Shown here: positions 26,246-36,417 of the stretch, one piece after another
Numbering within the stretch: the first letter of the stretch is position 1
Layout of the letters: every line of letters begins with the position of its first letter
Position numbers and translations under genes: made by a program
Notes under the pieces: generated by a model
Told to the model about the DNA's origin: nothing
What the model saw: the letters and a program-made list of their open reading frames with translations, nothing else
Database searches by the model: none
DNA from: Pseudomonas phage PaMx25
Sequence record: NC_041953.1
Strand: one strand, 5' to 3'
DNA length: 57,899 nucleotides

Positions 26246-28423
26246 CTAATCAACCTGATATCCAATGGCCTTCAGGATCTTCTCGCACTCCTGTTCATAC
26301 CACTCAAAATCGACGTCGGCAGGGAACTCGTCTGGCAAGTCCATCATGGGCTTAGCACCTTCCGAGCGGGGCACCTTGTTCCCGTTCGTTGCATAGACGA
26401 TCTCACCCTGCACCCCGACGGCGTAGTACCATCGGATTGACTTGCCCAGGTACTCAGTCAGGCCTGGTTTGGATAGCTCGTCCCAGGCCGCCTTGTACGC
26501 GCGTTCGGTGTTCATTGCAGCGCGCCCGATGGTGTCGCCTTCCCTGACCCAGCTATCTTTCGAGAAGGGCACGAACCCCGCCAGCTTCAGAAGCTCCTCC
26601 TGCGAACTGTGCGCGGGAGGCGGAATGCGATCCCACACCTTGACCGCGCCACCCTTCACGCTGCGCACGGACACGAACTTCGTGATGTCCTTGCACCCGC
26701 GCACTGTGGTCATGATCGGTACGTTCTTCGTCAGCAGCGCCTCCACAGCTTCCACGCAGATCGTATTCGTCGGGTTCTTGTGCAGGCGCTCAGCCATGTT
26801 CTTCTTGCTCGCCCACGGGTTGGCATAGGCGCCCTTACACTTCGTGGAACCGTCCTCCTTGACTGCGATGTAGTTATTCACGTCACGAGAATAGAGCGAC
26901 TTGTAGATGGTGCCCTCGGTCTGGAACCCTGTGTCCTGCTCCCATTGAGCGATGATCTGGTCCATGACGTGCTGCCCCTTGCGCGGGCACTTGATCACGA
27001 TGCCGTCCGTGTTCGCACTGACCACATGGATTCCAGCAAGCTCCAAGCGCTCGATCAGCATCAGTAGGCTTAGCTGGCCGGTCACTGTCACTTGGATCAG
27101 CAGGTCGGGTGAGTAGAGGATTGAATACTTGCTGCCCAGCTTACCGAACGACCCGTTGATCGTAATCTTGAGCGAGTCGGCTGTCACCTTGTCGCCACGC
27201 TCCTTGGCTGCAATACGTCGATCAACGATGTTCTTATACACGTGAAGGAACGTCGGGCCTAGGTGATGTGGGTACAGGCCGAGGTTCAAGATGATGAACG
27301 GGTAGTACGACGTGACGTCCTTGTCGATCAGGATGTAATTCTCGTCGCTGTGGTGCGCGGCCGTGCTTTCGCTACTGTGCAGACCGCCAATGCCCATGCG
27401 ATACACGCTGCCGTTGATATCAAGCTGGAGCGCCTTAATCTCTTCAGGCATGCCGATGGAACCAGTCTCATCCACAAGGAAGTTCGCATTCGCAACGACA
27501 CTCAGGGCCCAGTTCATCAGCTGCGACTGGTAGCGAATGAAGTGTGGCACCCTGTAGCGGTACGCTGTGCCCACCTCAATGACGGGCTTCTCTGGCCTGC
27601 GCCCCATGCGACGGGTCATCTCTTCCGCGATTACAGATTCGGCGATCTGTGCGTCGGACTTGCTGCGAAGGTCAATGCCGGTTTCATTCGATAGCGTAGT
27701 GCGCAGATCCAGGTGATCCCGCAAGCACTCATGAAGGAACGCGGTACTCGTTAAGTCGCTGTTGATGTTGTACCAGCGCACGCAGGCGATCTGTTCAGGG
27801 CTGAGCACGGTGTCAGGGTGGAACGGCAAGTCTTGCATTCGTGGAACGTGCAGACGGCCACCGTAGATCTTCAGGCTGGCGCGGAGCGGAGCCACCTCGA
27901 TCAGGTCAATGTGGTCAATCTTAACGCCCTTCACCTTGTATTGCTTCATCACGTCGGACCCGCGCCAACCTTCCAGAATGATCTGGTTCGTTGCACGCTT
28001 CAGCAATGCGTTCGGCTTACCCGCAAGCGCAAGGAATGTGATCGGTAAGTCGTACGACAGGGAGTTGAACCCGACGGTCGTGGTGTTTTCCAGTACCCAG
28101 CGCAGTTTCCCGACGTCAAGCGGGTGCCCATCATACATCTCGAAGAACACTGCTTTGCCTGTGGCGAGCGAGCGGAACGAGGCGATGAAATAGTTCTCAT
28201 AACACTCGATGTCGAACAGCAGCCTGTCGCGGGTCATTGCAGCGTGCAACACCTCCGCGTCGTTCATCACAAGCACGGGGAAGCGCAGAGCTTCTTCTAG
28301 CCCGGGCAGGTAGTCCGGGCGTAACCACACAGGGTCTGGCGGTGTGCGTTTGGCCTTCTCGGCCTTCTCCTTGGGAGGTGGCGGTCGATCCTCCCAGAAC
28401 AGTCCTAGAGCGTCAGCTCGCAT
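26246..28423 (-). CDS. family B DNA polymerase with 3'-5' exonuclease
   Basis: Exo I FDIECYENYF; pol motif A ILIDKDVTSYYPFII; motif B KITINGSFGKLG (Kx3NSxYG); motif C SANTDGI; GAGGA RBS. Confidence 0.8.
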   Translation of the reverse strand: MRADALGLFWEDRPPPPKEKAEKAKRTPPDPVWLRPDYLPGLEEALRFPVLVMNDAEVLHAAMTRDRLLFDIECYENYFIASFRSLATGKAVFFEMYDGHPLDVGKLRWVLENTTTVGFNSLSYDLPITFLALAGKPNALLKRATNQIILEGWRGSDVMKQYKVKGVKIDHIDLIEVAPLRASLKIYGGRLHVPRMQDLPFHPDTVLSPEQIACVRWYNINSDLTSTAFLHECLRDHLDLRTTLSNETGIDLRSKSDAQIAESVIAEEMTRRMGRRPEKPVIEVGTAYRYRVPHFIRYQSQLMNWALSVVANANFLVDETGSIGMPEEIKALQLDINGSVYRMGIGGLHSSESTAAHHSDENYILIDKDVTSYYPFIILNLGLYPHHLGPTFLHVYKNIVDRRIAAKERGDKVTADSLKITINGSFGKLGSKYSILYSPDLLIQVTVTGQLSLLMLIERLELAGIHVVSANTDGIVIKCPRKGQHVMDQIIAQWEQDTGFQTEGTIYKSLYSRDVNNYIAVKEDGSTKCKGAYANPWASKKNMAERLHKNPTNTICVEAVEALLTKNVPIMTTVRGCKDITKFVSVRSVKGGAVKVWDRIPPPAHSSQEELLKLAGFVPFSKDSWVREGDTIGRAAMNTERAYKAAWDELSKPGLTEYLGKSIRWYYAVGVQGEIVYATNGNKVPRSEGAKPMMDLPDEFPADVDFEWYEQECEKILKAIGYQVD

Positions 28424-28474: not shown

Positions 28475-29428
28475 TTACAGGCGCATGCCTACGATTGCAC
28501 CCCTGAGCCTATCACCATAGAACAGGCAGGGGTTCGGGTACGTGCTGAAGTCGATTTTCTGTGCCACATCCTTCAGCAGTTTGAGCATCTCAATCTGATA
28601 CACACCCTCGAACGGGAAGCCCACCATGTCGAACGATGCGCCTTCACCTTCGTCGATATGGGTCTTGACTGCTTCACCATGGAAGAACGCGCGCCCCAGC
28701 TTGTCGGCGAATGGTTTAATCACTTCCAGCCCTTCGAACAGGCGGGAGTCCATGTCACTCGGGTTGCTCTGCCTGTCAAGCACTTTCGACAGGTCTGGCC
28801 AGTCAGTGCTATACAGCTGGCTCCGGATCCAGCGCCCGTCGGTGTAATGGAATGTGATGCTGTTGTCGGTGCGCTGTGCGTGCGTAGGCGCTTCGTTGAT
28901 ACGGATCATCTCCTTGATTGCCGCCATAGGGATGTTGGCGGTGAAGGGTGTCTGCGAACCGATCCAGTATTCCACCAGGCACACGTTATTCGTGGCGAAC
29001 GCAGACTGACCCCGAAGCAAGATGCCGTTCGTCCAAGGGCGGGACGCATCGTTCCCGACGAACGGTGCAAGCGTCTTGCACGCCTTCAGAAGCTGCTCAC
29101 CGTCAAGATCTACGTGATCGCCTTCCGGCATCACGTGCGGCGTTTCACCATCGATGCAATCCACGAACGCCCGGAACTTACCGCTCTGAATGCGCAGCTT
29201 GCCCGCGGGAGTCATGCTCAGCGTCACTGTGTCGTTGCAGTTCGCAATCGCCTGCACCAGCGGGCCCGCCTTGGGCTTGCAGTCAATGTCAAAGGGGATG
29301 GGGCTGGACAGCGCCAGCGTGCCGTTATACGAGCGCACATGCCCACCCTCGATGGCGAAGTGAGTCATGGCGGGCAGGAGGTCTTTCTTAGCGACTGCGC
29401 CCTGCACGAACTTGAGTTCTTTAAGCAT
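28475..29428 (-). CDS. DNA polymerase sliding clamp (beta-clamp/DnaN-like)
   Basis: ATG 29428 (MLKELKF) overlaps dpdA stop (TAATG); NGTLALSSPIPFD, DWPDLSKVLDRQSNP and C-terminal GAIVGMRL parallel E. coli beta (DGTLSLTGTDLE, FPDYRRVLPKNPDK, VVMPMRL). Confidence 0.65.
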   Translation of the reverse strand: MLKELKFVQGAVAKKDLLPAMTHFAIEGGHVRSYNGTLALSSPIPFDIDCKPKAGPLVQAIANCNDTVTLSMTPAGKLRIQSGKFRAFVDCIDGETPHVMPEGDHVDLDGEQLLKACKTLAPFVGNDASRPWTNGILLRGQSAFATNNVCLVEYWIGSQTPFTANIPMAAIKEMIRINEAPTHAQRTDNSITFHYTDGRWIRSQLYSTDWPDLSKVLDRQSNPSDMDSRLFEGLEVIKPFADKLGRAFFHGEAVKTHIDEGEGASFDMVGFPFEGVYQIEMLKLLKDVAQKIDFSTYPNPCLFYGDRLRGAIVGMRL

Positions 29429-30366
29429 TAGAAGAGCTCCTGAATACGCGCCCGGAACGTGTTCGAGTGCGCAGCGTTGATCATTGTGTTGATCACACCG
29501 AACGCCCACAGGTTGTAAGCGGCGCGTGATTCATACACGGTGGAAAGGCGCTCAAGTGTGAAACCGTGTTTCTCGAGCATCTGCAGAACGTAGTCCTGTT
29601 CAATCGGTGTCAGTGTGGTCACGTGCTGTCCAGCGTCGTGCCTGCTGGGGGACTTCTCCGACACGCTCATAGGAAGTGCCATCGTGCTCTGGCTGTAGCC
29701 TGGGGTGATAATGCTGCCGAATGCTGCGGACTGAATCCAGGAGGACGAGTCACAGGAATACCACGGATAGCGCTCCATGATCGGAACGGCTGTGATACCG
29801 AAGCCATGCACCTTGATCTTCGGATTGCCGCTACCGTCGGTGAGGTAGCGATCCCATATCCTGTCCAGCCAGATACAGAGCTGCTGAGTGCTGGAGCCCA
29901 CCATGCCGCCGAGCGTGATGTATTCGTAGTTCGCGACGTACCATTCCAGATATCGCTCGTCTTCCCCAGCGTGGAAGCAGGGAAGGGGCTTGGCGCCGCG
30001 CTGCTCCATCTCGAGCTGATTGCGCCACGTCTGCAAAGGGTCGCCGATGCCGTCCAGCACAGACGCCATCACGACACCATCTTCAACGCGAATGATGTCT
30101 CTGTTGCGGTTGATATAGTCGCAATACTCCGCGACGCTAATCTCGACGCCCAGCGTGTAGGCAGAGAACGCTCCCGAGTCCAGGAACACTTGAGCACCGT
30201 CACGCCGCATATCATCGACATAACGCTGCTTTCCGACGTAGTGGTACGACTCGAGAATGTGAGGAAGATTCTTGCAGATGTTCTGCTCGTGCTCTGTCAG
30301 CTTGGCATGGCGCGCCTGACCTTCCATGTATCCGTTTGTATAGACTGCCGCCATAAAGATGTTCAT
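29428..30366 (-). CDS. dpdA: DpdA-like tRNA-guanine transglycosylase-family DNA transglycosylase
   Basis: VFLDSGAFSA matches the TGT catalytic DSGGFQ-type motif; 312 aa; embedded in a que/folE cluster. Confidence 0.6.
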   Translation of the reverse strand: MNIFMAAVYTNGYMEGQARHAKLTEHEQNICKNLPHILESYHYVGKQRYVDDMRRDGAQVFLDSGAFSAYTLGVEISVAEYCDYINRNRDIIRVEDGVVMASVLDGIGDPLQTWRNQLEMEQRGAKPLPCFHAGEDERYLEWYVANYEYITLGGMVGSSTQQLCIWLDRIWDRYLTDGSGNPKIKVHGFGITAVPIMERYPWYSCDSSSWIQSAAFGSIITPGYSQSTMALPMSVSEKSPSRHDAGQHVTTLTPIEQDYVLQMLEKHGFTLERLSTVYESRAAYNLWAFGVINTMINAAHSNTFRARIQELF

Positions 30367-30806
30367 GTTGTCACCTTGTTACCCTTAGTTCTGTTCTCCA
30401 TCATTGGAAGGTACTGCAAATTCGACAACACATGCAGGCCGCTCACCGTCTTACCTTGAAGCGGGATCACATGATCGACTTCGTGACCTTCCGGACAATT
30501 TTCGTAGAACTGTTGAATGAGTTCTTTCTCGCTCCATGCAGGCACACGCTTCAAGCGAAGGGCTTGCTGTCTGCGCACATGCGCGAGGGCTGCTTTCGGG
30601 TTCCGCGCATACCAGCGACGCCAGTTTTCTGTCGCGTTAGGAGAAGGCTTTTCACGAGCTTTACGTTTCGCGATCTGCTCAGGCTGGGAATTGATCCGCT
30701 TCACGTTTTCACGATTGCATTCGACACAAGTTCCAGTCGATTTGAACCGATGAGCAATATGTCCGCGCTTGCACGGTTTTCCTGTGAAGTAGAGCTCTGC
30801 TGCCAT
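30363..30806 (-). CDS. HNH endonuclease
   Basis: Start at second ATG 30806 (TTTGGAGGATTG ATG); Cys-rich N-terminal zinc finger (CKRGH...CVEC) and HEVDHVIPLQGKTVSGLHVLSNLQ HNH motif. Confidence 0.7.
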   Translation of the reverse strand: MAAELYFTGKPCKRGHIAHRFKSTGTCVECNRENVKRINSQPEQIAKRKAREKPSPNATENWRRWYARNPKAALAHVRRQQALRLKRVPAWSEKELIQQFYENCPEGHEVDHVIPLQGKTVSGLHVLSNLQYLPMMENRTKGNKVTT

Positions 30807-30818
30807 CAATCCTCCAAA

Positions 30819-30848
30819 ATGTAGGGACATCCGAAGACGTCCCTACAT
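30819..30848 (-). promoter_or_regulatory. 10-bp stem-loop between folE fusion and HNH gene (terminator/processing-site candidate)
   Basis: ATGTAGGGAC / GTCCCTACAT perfect arms with loop containing TTCG, followed on the coding (-) strand by TTTGGAGG; occludes the first ATG of the HNH ORF. Confidence 0.45.
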
Positions 30849-30864
30849 TATAGCGAACTAGCTG

Positions 30865-31758
30865 TTACTGGGCAAGCCGAAGAAACTCGGCACGGGTGTC
30901 GGGCTCATCTTTCATCGCACCGCGAAGAGCAGTCGTCACAGTGTGGTGCCCCTGCTGGCAGATGCCGCGTGACTCCATGCACATGTGGCGCGCCTTGATG
31001 ACCACACCGACGCCTTTCGCTTCCAGGTGCTCGAACAGCGCGTCAGCAATCTGGTCTGTGAGCCGTTCCTGCACTTGCAGGCGCCGCGCATACATGTCCG
31101 CCAGGCGCGACAGCTTGCTGAGCCCTACGATACGACCGTTCGGGATGTAGCTGATCGTCACCGTGCCGAAAATAGGCGCGAGATGGTGTTCGCAATGCGA
31201 ATAGATGGGGATGTCCCGCACCGTCACCATCTGATCATGCTTCTCGGCGCCGTCCTCGAACACCTTCAGGATCGCTTTCGGATCCTTACCGTAGCCCCCG
31301 CACCAGTGACGCCACGCTTTCGCGACGCGATGCGGAGTCTCGAGCAGACCTTCGCGGGCAGGATCGTCCCCGACGTACTGGAGCAGACGGCGGATATTAT
31401 CCTCGATGCCGGATTCGGCGTCACCCTCCCACGGGAACACGATCCAGCGACCCTTGAACTCTTCGTCGGTCTTCTTGTCGATGAGCACGAAGAACGGCTT
31501 GCCAGGGAACTGGTCGCACCAGTGCTCCATCGTGCTGCCGCTGTCGATCAGGTCGTCGATGAAGATGTCCGCCTTTTCGGGGTCGTCGGTAATGCTGAAC
31601 CCCGCGAGCCCTTGCAGCAGGTACGCAACGGGCACACCGCCGCGCGGTACGGGGTAAGCCAGCAGGGTGCGGCCAAGGGTAGCACCGAAGGCCAAAATGG
31701 CCTGTGCCGCCCGCTGCGCGAGCGCTTGCACGTCGTTGTGATTCAGAGTCAGTTGCAT
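30865..31758 (-). CDS. folE: Gpt-like phosphoribosyltransferase fused to GTP cyclohydrolase I (FolE)
   Basis: N-terminus PVPRGGVPVAYLL...IFIDDLIDSGSTM...WIVFPWE parallels E. coli Gpt (AVSRGGLVPGALLA...VIDDLVDTGGT...WIEQPWD); C-terminus carries FolE motifs GLLETPHRVAKAW, YSHCEHHLAPIFG, MCMESRG. Confidence 0.75.
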   Translation of the reverse strand: MQLTLNHNDVQALAQRAAQAILAFGATLGRTLLAYPVPRGGVPVAYLLQGLAGFSITDDPEKADIFIDDLIDSGSTMEHWCDQFPGKPFFVLIDKKTDEEFKGRWIVFPWEGDAESGIEDNIRRLLQYVGDDPAREGLLETPHRVAKAWRHWCGGYGKDPKAILKVFEDGAEKHDQMVTVRDIPIYSHCEHHLAPIFGTVTISYIPNGRIVGLSKLSRLADMYARRLQVQERLTDQIADALFEHLEAKGVGVVIKARHMCMESRGICQQGHHTVTTALRGAMKDEPDTRAEFLRLAQ

Positions 31759-31767
31759 GATGTGTCC

Positions 31768-32190
31768 TTAGTGTGCGTGGAAGGAGGCGGAGCACTTGCG
31801 CGTCTCTTCGACGTCACAATGTACGAGTTTGATGCCGGTGCCTGCGAGCTGCTGCGGGCCGATCACTTCAACGAGGTGTTGAGCGATGTTCTCGGCGGTC
31901 GGGTTGAACGGGACGATCACGATCGTCGGGTCGATCTCGGGCAGCACCTTGGCCCACGGGTCGTTCTCCCAGATGAGCGTCTTGTGATCCCAATTATCTT
32001 CCAGCCACATGCACAGGCGGGACTTCATGTCGCTGAAGTCAATCACGCGGCCGATGTTGTCCAGCGATTCCGCTTCGCAGGTGAAATGGACTCGATAGTT
32101 GTGGCCGTGCAGGTGCGCGCACTTCGACTCGTGCTGGAAGACGCGGTGTCCGCAGCTGATGTCGTGATATCGTTTGGCTTGCCAGGGCAT
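31768..32190 (-). CDS. queD: 6-carboxytetrahydropterin synthase QueD
   Basis: Start ATG 32190 with AGGAG RBS; CAHLHGHNY (CxxHGH) zinc motif; 141 aa. Confidence 0.8.
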   Translation of the reverse strand: MPWQAKRYHDISCGHRVFQHESKCAHLHGHNYRVHFTCEAESLDNIGRVIDFSDMKSRLCMWLEDNWDHKTLIWENDPWAKVLPEIDPTIVIVPFNPTAENIAQHLVEVIGPQQLAGTGIKLVHCDVEETRKCSASFHAH

Positions 32191-32194
32191 GTGG

Positions 32195-33595
32195 TTACTC
32201 CTTCTCGTTAGCGTAAGTGATGACCTCTTCGAGGCCGTTGATTTCGAAAGCAGTCCGACGCATATAGCACGGACCACACGTTCCGCAGTGCTGCTCGCCT
32301 GCGCGGTAGCAGCTCCAGGTCTTGTCGAGCGGTGCGCCAATGCGGTGCCCCAGCTCAACGATCTCATGCTTCATCAGGTTGCCGACAGGCATCATGACGC
32401 GCATGCGCTTTCCATCGCCTACAGCGAATGGCAACAGGTCATTGAACTTAGCAATGAACTCCGGTTCGTTGTCGGGGTAGGCACCAGCTTCCTCGAGGTT
32501 ATTCCCGAGGACGATAGTGTCGAACCCGTTCGCTTCGGCGTAAGCGGTAGCCACACTGAGCAGCAGCAGGTTCCGCGCAGGCACCCATTCATGAGCGAAC
32601 TCAGCACCTTCTTCACCGCCTGCGATCTTGCTGTCCGCTTGCAACAGCGGGGAGTCGCTGGGCTTATAGACTGGCAGGGGGAACACGGTGCAGGGCACAC
32701 CAATCGCGTCCGCGGCGGCCTGCACAGCAATCACCTCGGGGCCTTCCGCTCGGCTACCATAACAGAAGTGAATCAGTTCGGTTTCCACCCCGATCACTTT
32801 CTTGACGTAGGTGGCAGCGACCACACTGTCCAGGCCCCCGCTGCACACGACCAGCGCCTTGGAACGGGCGCCCACATCGTACAGGGATTCGCCTCGGATC
32901 TCAAGGTGATCGCTGAAGTAGAAGCTCATGACCGAATACGGATCAACCATGCGCGGGGTCATGTTGTCCGGGAAGTAGTGTCGGGCGCTTGCAAAGAACA
33001 CGCCGACTTCAGTTACGACGAACCAGATCGGGCGGTAGTTCGCAGCTACCAGCAGATGATTCTTCTGCTCGCTATGCGTCGCCAGGATTGCATAGCTGCC
33101 TTTCAGCTTCTTCACACCCTCGATGAAATGCAGCGCCGTCCGGTACGCATTGGAACCGTCACAGCGATTCGCATCCAGGACTTCTGCGATCGCAGCGCTG
33201 TCGATGCGGGTGGGCACCTTACCCGTGCGCAGGGCCTTGTCGTTTGCGATGGTGCCGTTATGCACGATAGACCAGTGCCCCGCGCTGTAAGGCTGCTGAT
33301 CGTCCTGCGACTTGTTGGCGACATATTCAGTCGTCGGTTCGGCGCGAAGGTTGCTGATGAACGTAGCGGACTCGACGTCGCCTTTGAAGAACTCGACAGG
33401 GTGCCAATCCTTGCCTTCCTTGCGTTCGGTGCTCTTCTCGATAACGATGTCGTCACCGTAGTTTGTCAGGAAGCCCCGACCGTCGCGACCGCGTTCATGG
33501 CTCTGCTGAATGATATGGTTCAGCAGACCGTTGGCCTGCGATCGCGTGTCAGGTGTGGTCAAGCCCCACACCAGGGCGCCAATGATTGCGCACAT
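32195..33595 (-). CDS. queC: glutamine amidotransferase-QueC fusion (Gat-QueC)
   Basis: N-terminal MCAIIG class II (Ntn) amidotransferase nucleophile; C-terminal QueC PP-loop VVCSGGLDS and zinc site C...CGTCGPC. Confidence 0.8.
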   Translation of the reverse strand: MCAIIGALVWGLTTPDTRSQANGLLNHIIQQSHERGRDGRGFLTNYGDDIVIEKSTERKEGKDWHPVEFFKGDVESATFISNLRAEPTTEYVANKSQDDQQPYSAGHWSIVHNGTIANDKALRTGKVPTRIDSAAIAEVLDANRCDGSNAYRTALHFIEGVKKLKGSYAILATHSEQKNHLLVAANYRPIWFVVTEVGVFFASARHYFPDNMTPRMVDPYSVMSFYFSDHLEIRGESLYDVGARSKALVVCSGGLDSVVAATYVKKVIGVETELIHFCYGSRAEGPEVIAVQAAADAIGVPCTVFPLPVYKPSDSPLLQADSKIAGGEEGAEFAHEWVPARNLLLLSVATAYAEANGFDTIVLGNNLEEAGAYPDNEPEFIAKFNDLLPFAVGDGKRMRVMMPVGNLMKHEIVELGHRIGAPLDKTWSCYRAGEQHCGTCGPCYMRRTAFEINGLEEVITYANEKE

Positions 33596-33598
33596 AGC

Positions 33599-34303
33599 TC
33601 ACTCCATGTTGATGATCTTGTGGATCTGTAGTTGAAGGATGTAACCGAACTTCATGCAGGAGTCGATGGCCGCTTGCAGGTTAAGGCGGTTGAGCTCTTC
33701 ATCCTTGGAGTCCATCGGTTGCAGGTAGATCGGGCGTGCCCAATTCTTGGGCGGTCGGGCCACATACGGACTCGCGCGGTGTTCCAACGCACGCAACGGA
33801 AGGCCGTCGTCGTGGATGCTGTCGTGCGCGATCACATACTTGAAGCAGCATGCGACGTCGTTGATGCGGGGATGAACCTTACCAGCTTTCGGGCTGCACA
33901 CCACATAGACGCCGGTTCGGATGTCCGGCATGGTGCTGTAAGGGTACTCGACAGGTTGAAGCGTGCCGTTCGTCTCGATCTGGACATAGAAGCCCGCATC
34001 GGTCAGCACGTTCAGGAGTCGGGTGATGTCTTGGCGGAACGGTTCGCCGCCGGTGATGACCACAAGCCCGCTCGACTGGTATTCCTTCACCTTGTCGAGG
34101 ATCTCTTGAGCGCTTGCAGCGCGCCTGCCTTGGGTGTAGTCGGTGTCGCATGCGGGGCATTGCAGATTGCACCCTGCGAGTCGAACGAATACGGAAGGGG
34201 TTCCGCAGAAAGGGCCTTCGCCCTGGATGGTGTGAAAGATGCTGTGTAAGGACAGCAGGCCGTCAGCGCTTCTGGTGCGCTTCTCGATGGGTTGTAAGTT
34301 CAT
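33599..34303 (-). CDS. queE: 7-carboxy-7-deazaguanine synthase QueE (radical SAM)
   Basis: CNLQCPACDT CxxxCxxC cluster, 234 aa, first gene of the que operon. Confidence 0.8.
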   Translation of the reverse strand: MNLQPIEKRTRSADGLLSLHSIFHTIQGEGPFCGTPSVFVRLAGCNLQCPACDTDYTQGRRAASAQEILDKVKEYQSSGLVVITGGEPFRQDITRLLNVLTDAGFYVQIETNGTLQPVEYPYSTMPDIRTGVYVVCSPKAGKVHPRINDVACCFKYVIAHDSIHDDGLPLRALEHRASPYVARPPKNWARPIYLQPMDSKDEELNRLNLQAAIDSCMKFGYILQLQIHKIINME

Positions 34304-34393: not shown

Positions 34394-34918
34394 TTAGGCC
34401 TGCTCGGCGCCAGCGGAGGTCGTTTCGGCCTTCGGAGACTCGATACGGCCGGTGATGCCGTGGAACTTGCGCCAGCGGGCATATTCGGCACGGACGTTGG
34501 CTTCGTTCAGACCGTCGGCCTTGGCCAGTTCCATGGACTCGCCGATGGACGCGGGAGCGCCATTCTTCTGCGACACGCTGTCGAAGATGCCCCAGGCCTT
34601 GCCACAGAGGGTGTCCGGCTTCGGGCGGCGGATGCCGTTCTGTTCAGGCATGCGGTTGGCATCGCGGGCAGCCTTGGCGTCGAGCTTGGCCTGTTCCTTC
34701 GCAGCCTTCTCGGCGGCCTTCTTGGCTTCGCGGTCAGCCTTTTCCTGGGCCTTCTGGGCTTCCTTGGCAGCCTTCTTCTCGGCAGCTTCGGCTTCACGCT
34801 TGGCCTTGGCTTCAGCCTTCTCGGCTTCCTTGCGAGCCTTCTCGGCAGCTTTTTCGTCAGCCTTGCGCTGGGCTTCGGCCTGCTCGGCAGCGATCTGTTC
34901 GGCGGTCTTCTCGGTCAT
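34394..34918 (-). CDS. putative DNA-binding protein: Lys/Ala/Glu-rich helical N-terminus + conserved C-terminal domain (paralog 1)
   Basis: ATG 34918 (MTEKTAEQIAAEQ...); KAAEKARKEAEKAEAKAK repeats; C-terminal LCGKAWGIFDSV...EYARWRKFHGITGR shared with two neighbouring genes. Confidence 0.5.
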   Translation of the reverse strand: MTEKTAEQIAAEQAEAQRKADEKAAEKARKEAEKAEAKAKREAEAAEKKAAKEAQKAQEKADREAKKAAEKAAKEQAKLDAKAARDANRMPEQNGIRRPKPDTLCGKAWGIFDSVSQKNGAPASIGESMELAKADGLNEANVRAEYARWRKFHGITGRIESPKAETTSAGAEQA

Positions 34919-35014
34919 GGTCTTTCTCCAGTGAAAGTGAATAAAGTCCGTTGATGGACGGGATTGCAATGTACCACTCCAGGAGCAGGAGTGCAAGCGG
35001 GCAAATCGGATATC

Positions 35015-35889: not shown

Positions 35890-36417
35890 TTACTGACGGC
35901 CGCGGATGCCGTTGAACTTGCGCCACTGGTAGAACTCGATGGACGCATTGTTCGGGTTCCAGCCGCGCTCTTCCGCCAGCGCCTTCACCTGCTTGGCGGT
36001 GGGCTGGGTGCCCGCTGCCACCATGTCGTCCAGCGCATCCCACACAGCACGACACTGACCGCCCACGGAGGGCTTCTTGATGCCGTTGCGCTCTTCGCGG
36101 GCCTTTTCAATCTTCAGGCCGCTGCTGGTGCGCTTGGCAGCGGCGGGAGCGCTGCGCTCCTCTTCCTTCTTCTCATTGGCACCCATCATCTGCTGAACCA
36201 TCGTTGCCAGGCCGCTCGGGGCGCTGACAGGTGCTTCCTGCACTTCCTCGGTGACCACAGCTTCCGGCGCAGCTTCTTCCGCGCCCTTGGCGTCAGCGTG
36301 GTGCGCTTCCAGCGCGGCACGCATGCCGTCATTGTTCATCTTGCCGTAGTTCTTGATGCCAGCTTCCTTGCAAGCCTGACGGAGTTCCACTTTGCCCATT
36401 TCGTTGAAGTTGATCAT
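35890..36417 (-). CDS. putative DNA-binding protein: HeH/Rho_N-like N-terminus + conserved C-terminal domain (paralog 3)
   Basis: MGKVELRQACKEAGIKNYGKMNNDGMRAALEAH resembles Rho_N/SAP-like helix-extension-helix; C-terminus CRAVWDALDDMVAAGTQPTAKQVKALAEERGWNPNNASIEFYQWRKFNGIRGR. Confidence 0.5.
   Translation of the reverse strand: MINFNEMGKVELRQACKEAGIKNYGKMNNDGMRAALEAHHADAKGAEEAAPEAVVTEEVQEAPVSAPSGLATMVQQMMGANEKKEEERSAPAAAKRTSSGLKIEKAREERNGIKKPSVGGQCRAVWDALDDMVAAGTQPTAKQVKALAEERGWNPNNASIEFYQWRKFNGIRGRQ

Follow-up and report, generated by a model that had tools for sequence, protein, structure and literature searches.

A predicted 2'-deoxyarchaeosine DNA modification module with a FolE-fused Gpt-like domain in Pseudomonas phage PaMx25

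For the Escherichia coli phage 9g, the precursor genes folE, queD and queE each complement E. coli mutants; DpdA alone introduces the deoxynucleoside of 7-cyano-7-deazaguanine (preQ0), dPreQ0, into DNA; and DpdA together with Gat-QueC yields 2'-deoxyarchaeosine (dG+) in E. coli at approximately 9-18% of G, even where queC has been deleted, while the deoxynucleoside of 7-amido-7-deazaguanine (dADG) stays below detection (<6 per 10^6 nucleotides) (Hutinet et al. 2019, PMC6884629). The virion DNA of Pantoea phage vB_PagS_Vid5 contains dG+ at 7.55% of G, as determined by liquid chromatography-tandem mass spectrometry, with negligible dPreQ0 (PMC8306585), and knockout of dpdA in phage CAjan leads to the loss of all modification (PMC6884629). 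Here, we analyse a gene cluster of this kind in Pseudomonas phage PaMx25, located on the minus strand at positions 29428-34303 of sequence record NC_041953.1, whose entire length of 57,899 nucleotides is referred to as the window. The cluster comprises queE, gat-queC, queD, folE and dpdA. Since the same gene combination has been characterised in 9g and Vid5, dG+ is the supported product, and we consider it likely that the module is a phage system of the 9g/Vid5 type, which would generate dG+ in DNA after replication. Most likely, part of the genomic guanine is swapped for archaeosine in order to escape restriction enzymes.

The cluster and its predicted dG+ product are already known for NP1/PaMx25-like phages. 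Tsai (2017, PMC5567051) listed the Gat-QueC proteins of NP1 and PaMx25, with 52% identity to that of 9g, and proposed dG+; Simoliunas (2018, PMC6266253) named NP1, PaMx25, JG012 and JG054 in connection with Gat-QueC and predicted dG+; Hutinet (2019, PMC6884629) placed Quinobequin-P09 in the predicted dG+ group; and the paper on phage MMDA13 compares these clusters. The core finding thus adds little, given that the subfamily Queuovirinae is named after such genes and that the predicted product has been cited since 2017. The DNA of PaMx phages was reportedly refractory to restriction in an earlier study.

Based on the 9g orthologues, we propose the following reaction sequence, of which the first three steps are established enzyme chemistry with orthologues tested in 9g, and in which (i) FolE would convert GTP into dihydroneopterin triphosphate (H2NTP); (ii) QueD would convert H2NTP into 6-carboxytetrahydropterin (CPH4); (iii) the radical SAM enzyme QueE would form 7-carboxy-7-deazaguanine (CDG) from CPH4; (iv) the QueC domain of Gat-QueC would turn CDG into an amide and then, with ATP, into preQ0; (v) the amidotransferase domain, with its Cys2, would use ammonia from glutamine to turn the preQ0 nitrile into the formamidine of archaeosine (G+), either before or after insertion into DNA; and (vi) DpdA would excise guanine from duplex phage DNA and insert the 7-deazaguanine base by a double displacement, with D63 as general acid and D206 as the Asp nucleophile. 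Replacement would be partial, at short DpdA1 motifs, namely GA and perhaps also GGC, and the modified DNA would resist many type II restriction enzymes.

The five genes lie head to tail in the order queE-gat-queC-queD-folE-dpdA, followed downstream by the genes for a sliding clamp and a DNA polymerase, and are separated by 3-9 nt or overlap; the only exception is a 58-nt gap between folE and an HNH gene, which holds a hairpin. Gene identities were assigned by searches of Pfam, NCBIfam and PHROGs. The first gene, queE (33599-34303), encodes a putative CDG synthase of 234 aa that matches Pfam Radical_SAM above the cut-off (5e-09) and the QueE-like PHROG 2076 (2.7e-64), and its sequence CNLQCPAC corresponds to the CX3CX2C motif of radical SAM enzymes. 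NCBIfam QueE models recognise it (1e-25) with about 90 bits, far below their equivalog cut-offs of 200-300. We assign it to QueE because of PHROG 2076 and of a full-length identity of 51% to the QueE that was tested in 9g. The 6-carboxytetrahydropterin synthase gene queD (31768-32190) encodes 140 aa with matches to Pfam PTPS (8.8e-25; 87.5 bits for a cut-off of 22.4) and PHROG 2389 (5.5e-55), the motif CxxxHGH (CAHLHGH), 44% identity to 9g QueD and a TIGR03367 score of 74.4, under the cut-off of 89.25. Its start is placed at 32190, and not at 32367 as in the mechanically listed open reading frame (ORF) of 199 aa, because NP1 is so annotated and because 9g QueD aligns with the long ORF from residue 60 onwards. 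For FolE (30865-31758, 297 aa), the match to Pfam GTP_cyclohydroI (7.4e-71; 237.7 bits for a cut-off of 27) covers residues 118-296 only. This GTP cyclohydrolase I domain (aa 118-297, 30865-31407) reaches equivalog level with TIGR00063 (222 bits for a cut-off of 181.6), carries the zinc motifs CEHH and HMC, and shares 61% identity with 9g FolE.

The gat-queC gene (32195-33595) encodes a fusion of 466 aa, with a class-II glutamine amidotransferase at about residues 1-215 and QueC at about residues 243-466. QueC is clearly recognised by Pfam (PF06508, 1.4e-51, residues 246-452, 175 bits for a cut-off of 22), and 3bl5 and 2pg3, both QueC, are the closest solved structures; TIGR00364 gives 130 bits, under its equivalog cut-off of 150. 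Residues 95-207 match GATase_6 (8.2e-07, 29.5 bits for a cut-off of 27) and GATase_7 (2.8e-06, 27.8 bits for a cut-off of 25), and the whole protein matches PHROG 10428 (4.6e-268). Its 52% identity to 9g Gat-QueC extends from end to end. Both proteins have Cys2, the SGGLDS PP-loop and the C-terminal cysteine motif CGTCGPC; SGGLDS and CYRAGEQHCGTCGPC, that is, the QueC PP-loop and the zinc-binding cysteine cluster, are conserved between them. They begin with MCAIIG here and MCSIFG in 9g, so that the nucleophilic Cys directly follows Met1, a feature of class-II (Ntn) amidotransferases. Stand-alone QueC, QueF/QueF-L and ArcS are absent from the annotation of NP1, and QueC, QueF and ArcS gave no match among 10 larger hypothetical ORFs searched with Pfam and PHROGs (ORFs of at least 100 aa).

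The DNA guanine transglycosylase gene dpdA (29428-30366) encodes a protein of 312 aa that belongs to PHROG 887 (8.6e-100) and is 100% identical to DpdA of Quinobequin-P09, 76% identical to that of Vid5, 70% identical to that of 9g (over 100% of the length) and 66-72% identical to the iggy-like and Seuratvirus proteins (72% for Seuratvirus). The Pfam model of tRNA-guanine transglycosylases (TGT, PF01702) did not match it, even at E-values up to 10; single-sequence phmmer against the PDB found nothing; and the NCBIfam model of bacterial DpdA, NF041059, gave 17.3 bits for a cut-off of 200. The assignment was therefore based on a homologue profile, fold searches and orthology in place of Pfam TGT and phmmer. 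A profile of 54 DpdA homologues (30-72% identity) had its best PDB match in Salmonella DpdA (7ui4), with a weak E-value of 0.049 and an alignment spanning GGMV...VHGFG...SxDS, and the protein has a TGT-type (beta/alpha)8 barrel fold, with archaeosine TGT (arcTGT) as the top fold-search match. In bacterial DpdA, Asp95 is the general acid/base, Asp130 and His181 recognise the base and Asp256 is the nucleophile (PMC10164549). Among the 54 homologues, D63, D105, H132 and D206 are at least 90% conserved. D206 aligns with the Asp of SIDS in 7ui4 in the hidden Markov model alignment, and D63 lies in LDSGAF with F67 four residues on, as Phe99 follows Asp95 in the bacterial enzyme; mapped by motif and order, D63, D105 and H132 are the putative equivalents of Asp95, Asp130 and His181. 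The zinc site (CxCxxC...H), reported to be conserved in TGTs and bacterial DpdA (PMC10164549), has no conserved cysteine column in a diverse DpdA1 alignment, and its motif is absent from the 312-aa sequence; phage DpdA proteins also lie apart from TGT and bacterial DpdA in similarity networks (PMC6884629). Orthology, profile search, fold search and active-site residues place the 312-aa protein in the TGT/DpdA superfamily, and the NF041059 score separates it from the bacterial enzyme: it is a member of the DpdA1 subfamily and not a bacterial DpdA equivalog.

An earlier note on this DNA, made from the sequence alone, had described the module as comprising DpdA, QueE, QueD, FolE and Gat-QueC in a replication block beside the polymerase and clamp genes. 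Its outer coordinates proved exact, family searches and orthology bear out the five identities, and the genomic position is as described. The two proteins on which that reading hinged are what it had taken them for: its matches in the fold and profile searches and its 70% identity to 9g DpdA put the 312-aa protein within the TGT/DpdA superfamily, although the Pfam TGT model misses it, and the 466-aa protein contains QueC. Its statement that stand-alone QueC, QueF and ArcS are lacking also holds in the NP1 annotation and the 10 hypothetical ORFs. The inventory was right for five genes and left unmentioned a sixth ORF, the HNH gene at 30363-30806, and the two-domain nature of FolE.

As side observations on the wider family, five distant DpdA homologues of about 600-640 aa (P0129, P0133, P0138, P0149 and P0177) carry an insertion of about 310 aa just before the catalytic SxDSSSW, with the junctions ...RYPWH|CMTEED...VTGN|SVDSSSW in P0129 and a weak LAGLIDADG match in P0133. 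In sequence, the insertion looks like an active-site intein. The window DpdA is free of it.

The DpdA1 motifs published for related phages are GA for iggy and, for CAjan, GA together with GGC (and GGT); over 97% of the sites carry the modification. GA accounts for 23.2% and GGC for 7.6% of all G in the window, and the former share implies that saturating modification would replace about a quarter of the G, as in 9g. A signal that may stem from such a modification is seen in the Nipunavirus PIP (OR687155, record OR687155.1), which was assembled from Nanopore reads only. PIP shows 76-79% identity to the window with approximately one gap opening per 22-27 nt, and its genes are annotated as fragments throughout the genome, whereas the control, Quinobequin-P09, has 94% identity and opens five gaps over 6.5 kb. 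In a 40-kb comparison, PIP disagrees with the window minus strand at the A of 67% of 5'-GA-3' sites, mostly with a G or a deletion in its place; for plus-strand GA the value is 5%, and the Quinobequin control gives 2%. When GA neighbourhoods are masked, discordance is highest at the middle G of GGC (38%). The divergence of PIP is probably in large part systematic basecalling error on modified DNA. As GA and GGC are the published DpdA1 motifs, the signal indirectly supports a bulky G modification in Nipunavirus, and the error pattern suggests GA (and GGC) as the modified motifs. Strand-specific modification was set aside as the cause of the asymmetry, which follows the assembly strand and not gene orientation throughout the genome; the cause is probably technical and most simply lies in a draft made from single-strand reads, followed by tied votes during polishing. 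These effects have practical weight, as Nipunaviruses are candidates for the therapy of P. aeruginosa infections, and dG+ in DNA protects against many restriction enzymes and, as PIP suggests, can impair Nanopore basecalling.

The first 115 or so residues of FolE (31414-31758) have no counterpart in the 204-aa FolE of 9g. When a profile of six homologues of this region was compared with the PDB, xanthine-guanine phosphoribosyltransferases (XGPRT/Gpt) were the top six matches, with E-values of 1e-5 to 7e-5. The NCBIfam xanthine phosphoribosyltransferase family was matched by five of the six homologues (best E-value 1.8e-8); the window domain itself gave 0.002, under the cut-off. For the domain, NF006613 scored 17.7 bits for a cut-off of 138, Pfam Pribosyltran had an E-value of 0.28 and PHROG 8995 (phosphoribosyl transferase) one of 4.5e-5. 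An RGG loop, a phosphoribosyl pyrophosphate (PRPP) motif IFIDDLIDSGSTM and the segment WIVFPWE are all conserved, and the latter two align with the Gpt motifs IVIDDLVDTGGT and WIxQPWD. We take them to be the PRPP-binding motif and the purine-binding WIxxPW[DE] segment, respectively. P36-V42, D68, D69, T76, K95, P109, W110 and E111 are invariant in the six-sequence alignment, and from the RGG loop to the PRPP motif the domain is shorter than Gpt by approximately 20-28 residues. Because of these missing residues and of scores under the family cut-offs, we refer to the domain as Gpt-like, not as Gpt. An AlphaFold2 model computed from the six-sequence alignment reached a mean confidence score (pLDDT) of 54 and was not used.

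Besides the window phage, at least five further phage lineages have the Gpt-like domain fused to FolE. A tblastn search found it fused to FolE in all 33 phage records matched, among them phages with a plain QueC (Stenotrophomonas phage ply2008005c, Vibrio phage 033B and Sphingomonas phage MMDA13), and a word-indexed homologue search returned five proteins only. The domain is noted at L009 (5108-6001) and L010 (5029-5931); on the metagenomic contig L011 the domain forms a separate gene (700-1098) between queD and queE. A 267-aa ORF on the latter contig has DpdA-like motifs and could not be confirmed as DpdA. A free-standing homologue with 57% identity (P0122) is encoded on contig L004 (8001-8426), and also on L005 and L006, about 330 nt downstream of an Acb2/Tad1-like gene in a phage with a family-A DNA polymerase. 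As no que genes were found within 8 kb of this gene, the domain is not confined to 7-deazaguanine clusters. Taken together, the pattern of fusion and neighbourhood ties it to the shared part of the pathway and not to the G+ step. We found no description of a FolE-linked Gpt-like domain in the searchable literature. Considering that DpdA frees one guanine per exchange and that FolE consumes GTP, guanine salvage is the simplest idea: the domain would combine the guanine expelled by DpdA with PRPP to form GMP and refill the GTP pool for FolE. Judged from fusion and neighbourhood, this is the most likely role, with phosphoribosylation of the 7-deazaguanine base itself as a bolder variant. We put forward tentatively, as a possibility still open to considerable doubt, that the Gpt-like domain is a sixth, hitherto undescribed part of the 7-deazaguanine modules of phages and acts in guanine salvage. 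The linkage to FolE hints at a guanine-recycling step, which published pathway schemes do not contain.

Several points weigh against the reading of the module as a dG+ system and against the proposals attached to it. No nucleoside analysis of PaMx25 or any Nipunavirus was found in the literature, so dG+ remains a prediction here. Gat-QueC is no more than 52% identical to the tested 9g enzyme, and QueC, QueD and QueE all score under the NCBIfam equivalog cut-offs. DpdA escapes the Pfam TGT model and lies far below the cut-off of the bacterial DpdA model. The extent of replacement is not predictable, as shown by the 7.5% of G in Vid5 and the approximately 25% in 9g. The Nanopore signal comes from PIP, which is another phage, is strand-asymmetric and says nothing on which 7-deazaguanine is present. 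For the Gpt-like domain, the evidence on its role is that of fusion and neighbourhood, the domain is short by about 20-28 residues, and the structural model failed.

With the same DpdA at its end, the pathway could stop one step earlier. If the amidotransferase were inactive or inefficient, the module would halt at preQ0 and the genome would contain mainly dPreQ0, as in CAjan and iggy; 9g DpdA alone inserts preQ0, the window DpdA is 66-72% identical to the enzymes of dPreQ0 phages, the GATase Pfam match is barely above its cut-off (29.5 for 27 bits), and dPreQ0 occurs in traces in Vid5 and in the 9g expression strains. However, the Gat domain matches that of 9g along its whole length, including the Cys2 nucleophile, it has been kept across Nipunavirus, Nonagvirus and Vid5, and in the two Gat-QueC phages tested, dG+ is accompanied by negligible dPreQ0, which makes this outcome unlikely. 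An amide product is more improbable still. It would arise if the QueC domain halted at the amide, since 7-amido-7-deazaguanine is an intermediate of the QueC reaction, or if the nitrile were hydrated. dADG does occur in phages, namely in CP220, which has the QueC* variant, and in MED16 (0.13% of G, PMC8306585), but phage dADG has been linked to QueC* or to host or DpdC-type enzymes and not to Gat-QueC, and a DpdC-like gene is lacking in the NP1 annotation and among the 10 larger hypothetical ORFs searched with Pfam and PHROGs. With the 9g orthologues, dADG stayed under 6 per 10^6 nucleotides, and the Vid5 paper gives dG+ with a trace of dPreQ0 and lists no dADG (PMC8306585). The earlier note was right that such modules replace genomic dG by 7-deazaguanine derivatives against restriction, yet it ranked 7-amido-7-deazaguanine first, a choice that the 9g measurement contradicts in favour of dG+; its remark that the derivative is not obvious from sequence is outdated, the combination having been characterised in 9g and Vid5.

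Two further readings depart from post-replicative DNA modification by DpdA, and we give each of them very little credence. In one, the genes would serve as an auxiliary metabolic cassette, raising the queuosine or archaeosine content of tRNA and leaving DNA unmodified; the fold is of the tRNA-guanine transglycosylase type, and public annotations of relatives are tRNA-related ("queuine tRNA-ribosyltransferase"). Against this, 9g DpdA modifies DNA and fails to complement an E. coli tgt mutant (PMC6884629), the CAjan knockout of dpdA abolishes DNA modification, the genes are embedded in a replication block in a window free of tRNA genes, and DpdA is missed by the Pfam TGT model and lacks the canonical TGT zinc-site cysteines. 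The other, equally improbable, starts from the Gpt-like domain: modelled on the phosphoribosyltransferase of toyocamycin and tubercidin biosynthesis, the domain would join the 7-deazaguanine base to PRPP, and the nucleotide would be reduced, phosphorylated and polymerised, with a secondary role for DpdA. In several phage lineages, a phosphoribosyltransferase domain is indeed fused to 7-deazaguanine genes or lies next to them, clusters for 7-deazapurine nucleosides use such an enzyme (10.64898/2026.04.15.718813), and the genome encodes a ribonucleotide reductase. Yet 9g reaches approximately 25% dG+ without a Gpt-like domain, DpdA alone suffices and is required, as 9g and CAjan show, every phage 7-deazaguanine modification known so far is deemed post-replicative (Cui 2023), and motif-specific partial replacement suits a transglycosylase and not a polymerase.

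The junction of folE and dpdA differs among close relatives. The HNH gene (30363-30806, minus strand, 147 aa) encodes an endonuclease VII-like protein (PHROG 1035, 5.6e-24; Pfam HNH weak, 0.03) that is annotated as a homing endonuclease in NP1. It separates the ribosome-binding site of dpdA from the dpdA start codon, exactly at that junction, and its stop overlaps this start (ATGA); window positions of about 30368-30810 are absent from Quinobequin-P09, in which the same GGAGG site stands immediately before dpdA. Five records contain the gene (four phages: NP1 twice, JG012, PAB2 and Sew_P3), and it is missing from 12 records of close relatives, including Quinobequin-P09. It is a free-standing insertion outside the pathway, and its presence and absence look like a homing-endonuclease polymorphism. 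Upstream of it, after the folE stop and ahead of the next ribosome-binding site, the transcript forms a predicted hairpin of 14 bp with a UUCG loop (30818-30849, minus strand). When positions 30800-30870 of the minus strand were folded, the energy was -32.1 kcal/mol (z = -6.4), and none of 200 shuffled sequences was as stable; Quinobequin-P09 has kept the hairpin, with one A-U pair replaced by G-U. Just upstream of the hairpin is a match to TTGCCC-17-TATAAT; such promoter-like sites occur at chance frequency in this region. The hairpin could be a terminator or attenuator, or a 5' stabiliser of the dpdA-clamp-polymerase message.

Next to the module, the sliding-clamp-like polymerase processivity factor (28475-29428, minus strand; PHROG 947, 2.6e-87) is 43% identical to the 9g clamp, and the family-B DNA polymerase (26246-28423, minus strand; PHROG 1252, 4e-221; weak NCBIfam matches to PolB-type models) is 44% identical to the 9g polymerase. 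The dpdA stop and the clamp start share one nucleotide at 29428, and the clamp gene is translationally coupled to dpdA. A helicase gene lies upstream of the module. Between it and queE, two paralogous hypothetical proteins are encoded on the minus strand (34394-34996 and 35890-36417), with a common C-terminal domain (about 65 aa, ...W..F......WRKF.GI) behind a region rich in Lys, Ala and Glu; both match gp09 of 9g, which occupies the equivalent position, and have no PHROGs function. Counts of promoter and terminator patterns between 26 and 39 kb did not exceed those in shuffled sequence, and we therefore make no claims on operon boundaries. No tRNA genes or Rfam families, such as the preQ1 riboswitch, were found in the window. 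Two long plus-strand ORFs opposite the module (30985-32211, 408 aa, and 32174-33631, 485 aa) have no homologues and were rejected as antisense artefacts of the 58% G+C content.

The window represents an entire genome of the genus Nipunavirus (subfamily Queuovirinae). In comparison with known systems, the module is closest to those of other Nipunaviruses: NP1, Quinobequin-P09, JG012 and PAJD-1 show 92-94% nucleotide identity over it (93% for NP1, which is collinear with coordinates offset by about 30 nt) and have the same FolE fusion, and the sole difference from the window is the presence or absence of the HNH gene. Xanthomonas phage DoCa3 and Variovorax phage VPv62 also have 92-94% identity across the module and a 99% identical DpdA, which is unusually close to a P. 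aeruginosa phage given their recorded hosts (Xanthomonas arboricola and Variovorax paradoxus). Phage 9g (Nonagvirus), likewise a member of the Queuovirinae, has the same five proteins in the same order (QueE, Gat-QueC, QueD, FolE and DpdA, followed by clamp and polymerase), with 44-70% full-length identity to the window proteins. It differs in its host (E. coli versus P. aeruginosa), in a FolE of 204 aa that lacks the Gpt-like N-terminal domain, in an additional gene for a 253-aa hypothetical protein between queE and gat-queC, and in the absence of an HNH gene between folE and dpdA. For 9g there is direct experimental proof of dG+. Vid5, of another genus and host, has the same set of Gat-QueC, FolE, QueD, QueE and DpdA, and is not among the 33 records matched with the Gpt-like domain.

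The more distant systems share parts of this scheme. CAjan (Seuratvirus) and iggy agree with it in the FolE, QueD and QueE steps, in a DpdA1 orthologue with 66-72% identity and in motif-specific post-replicative replacement; unlike the window they carry a plain QueC without an amidotransferase domain, so their base stays preQ0. Bacterial Dpd, as in Salmonella Montevideo, shows marginal similarity to the window DpdA (E-value 0.049 with 7ui4; 17 bits for a cut-off of 200). It requires the ATPase DpdB, modifies less than 0.1% of G, proceeds to dADG by means of DpdC and belongs to a restriction-modification island; the partner genes for DpdB and DpdC are not present in the window module. The arcTGT/Gat-QueC system of tRNA uses the same Gat-QueC architecture and the same chemistry from preQ0 to G+. 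However, it acts on position 15 of tRNA whereas phage DpdA acts on DNA, and the window DpdA, with 312 aa as opposed to 577 aa, lacks the C-terminal RNA-binding domains of arcTGT.

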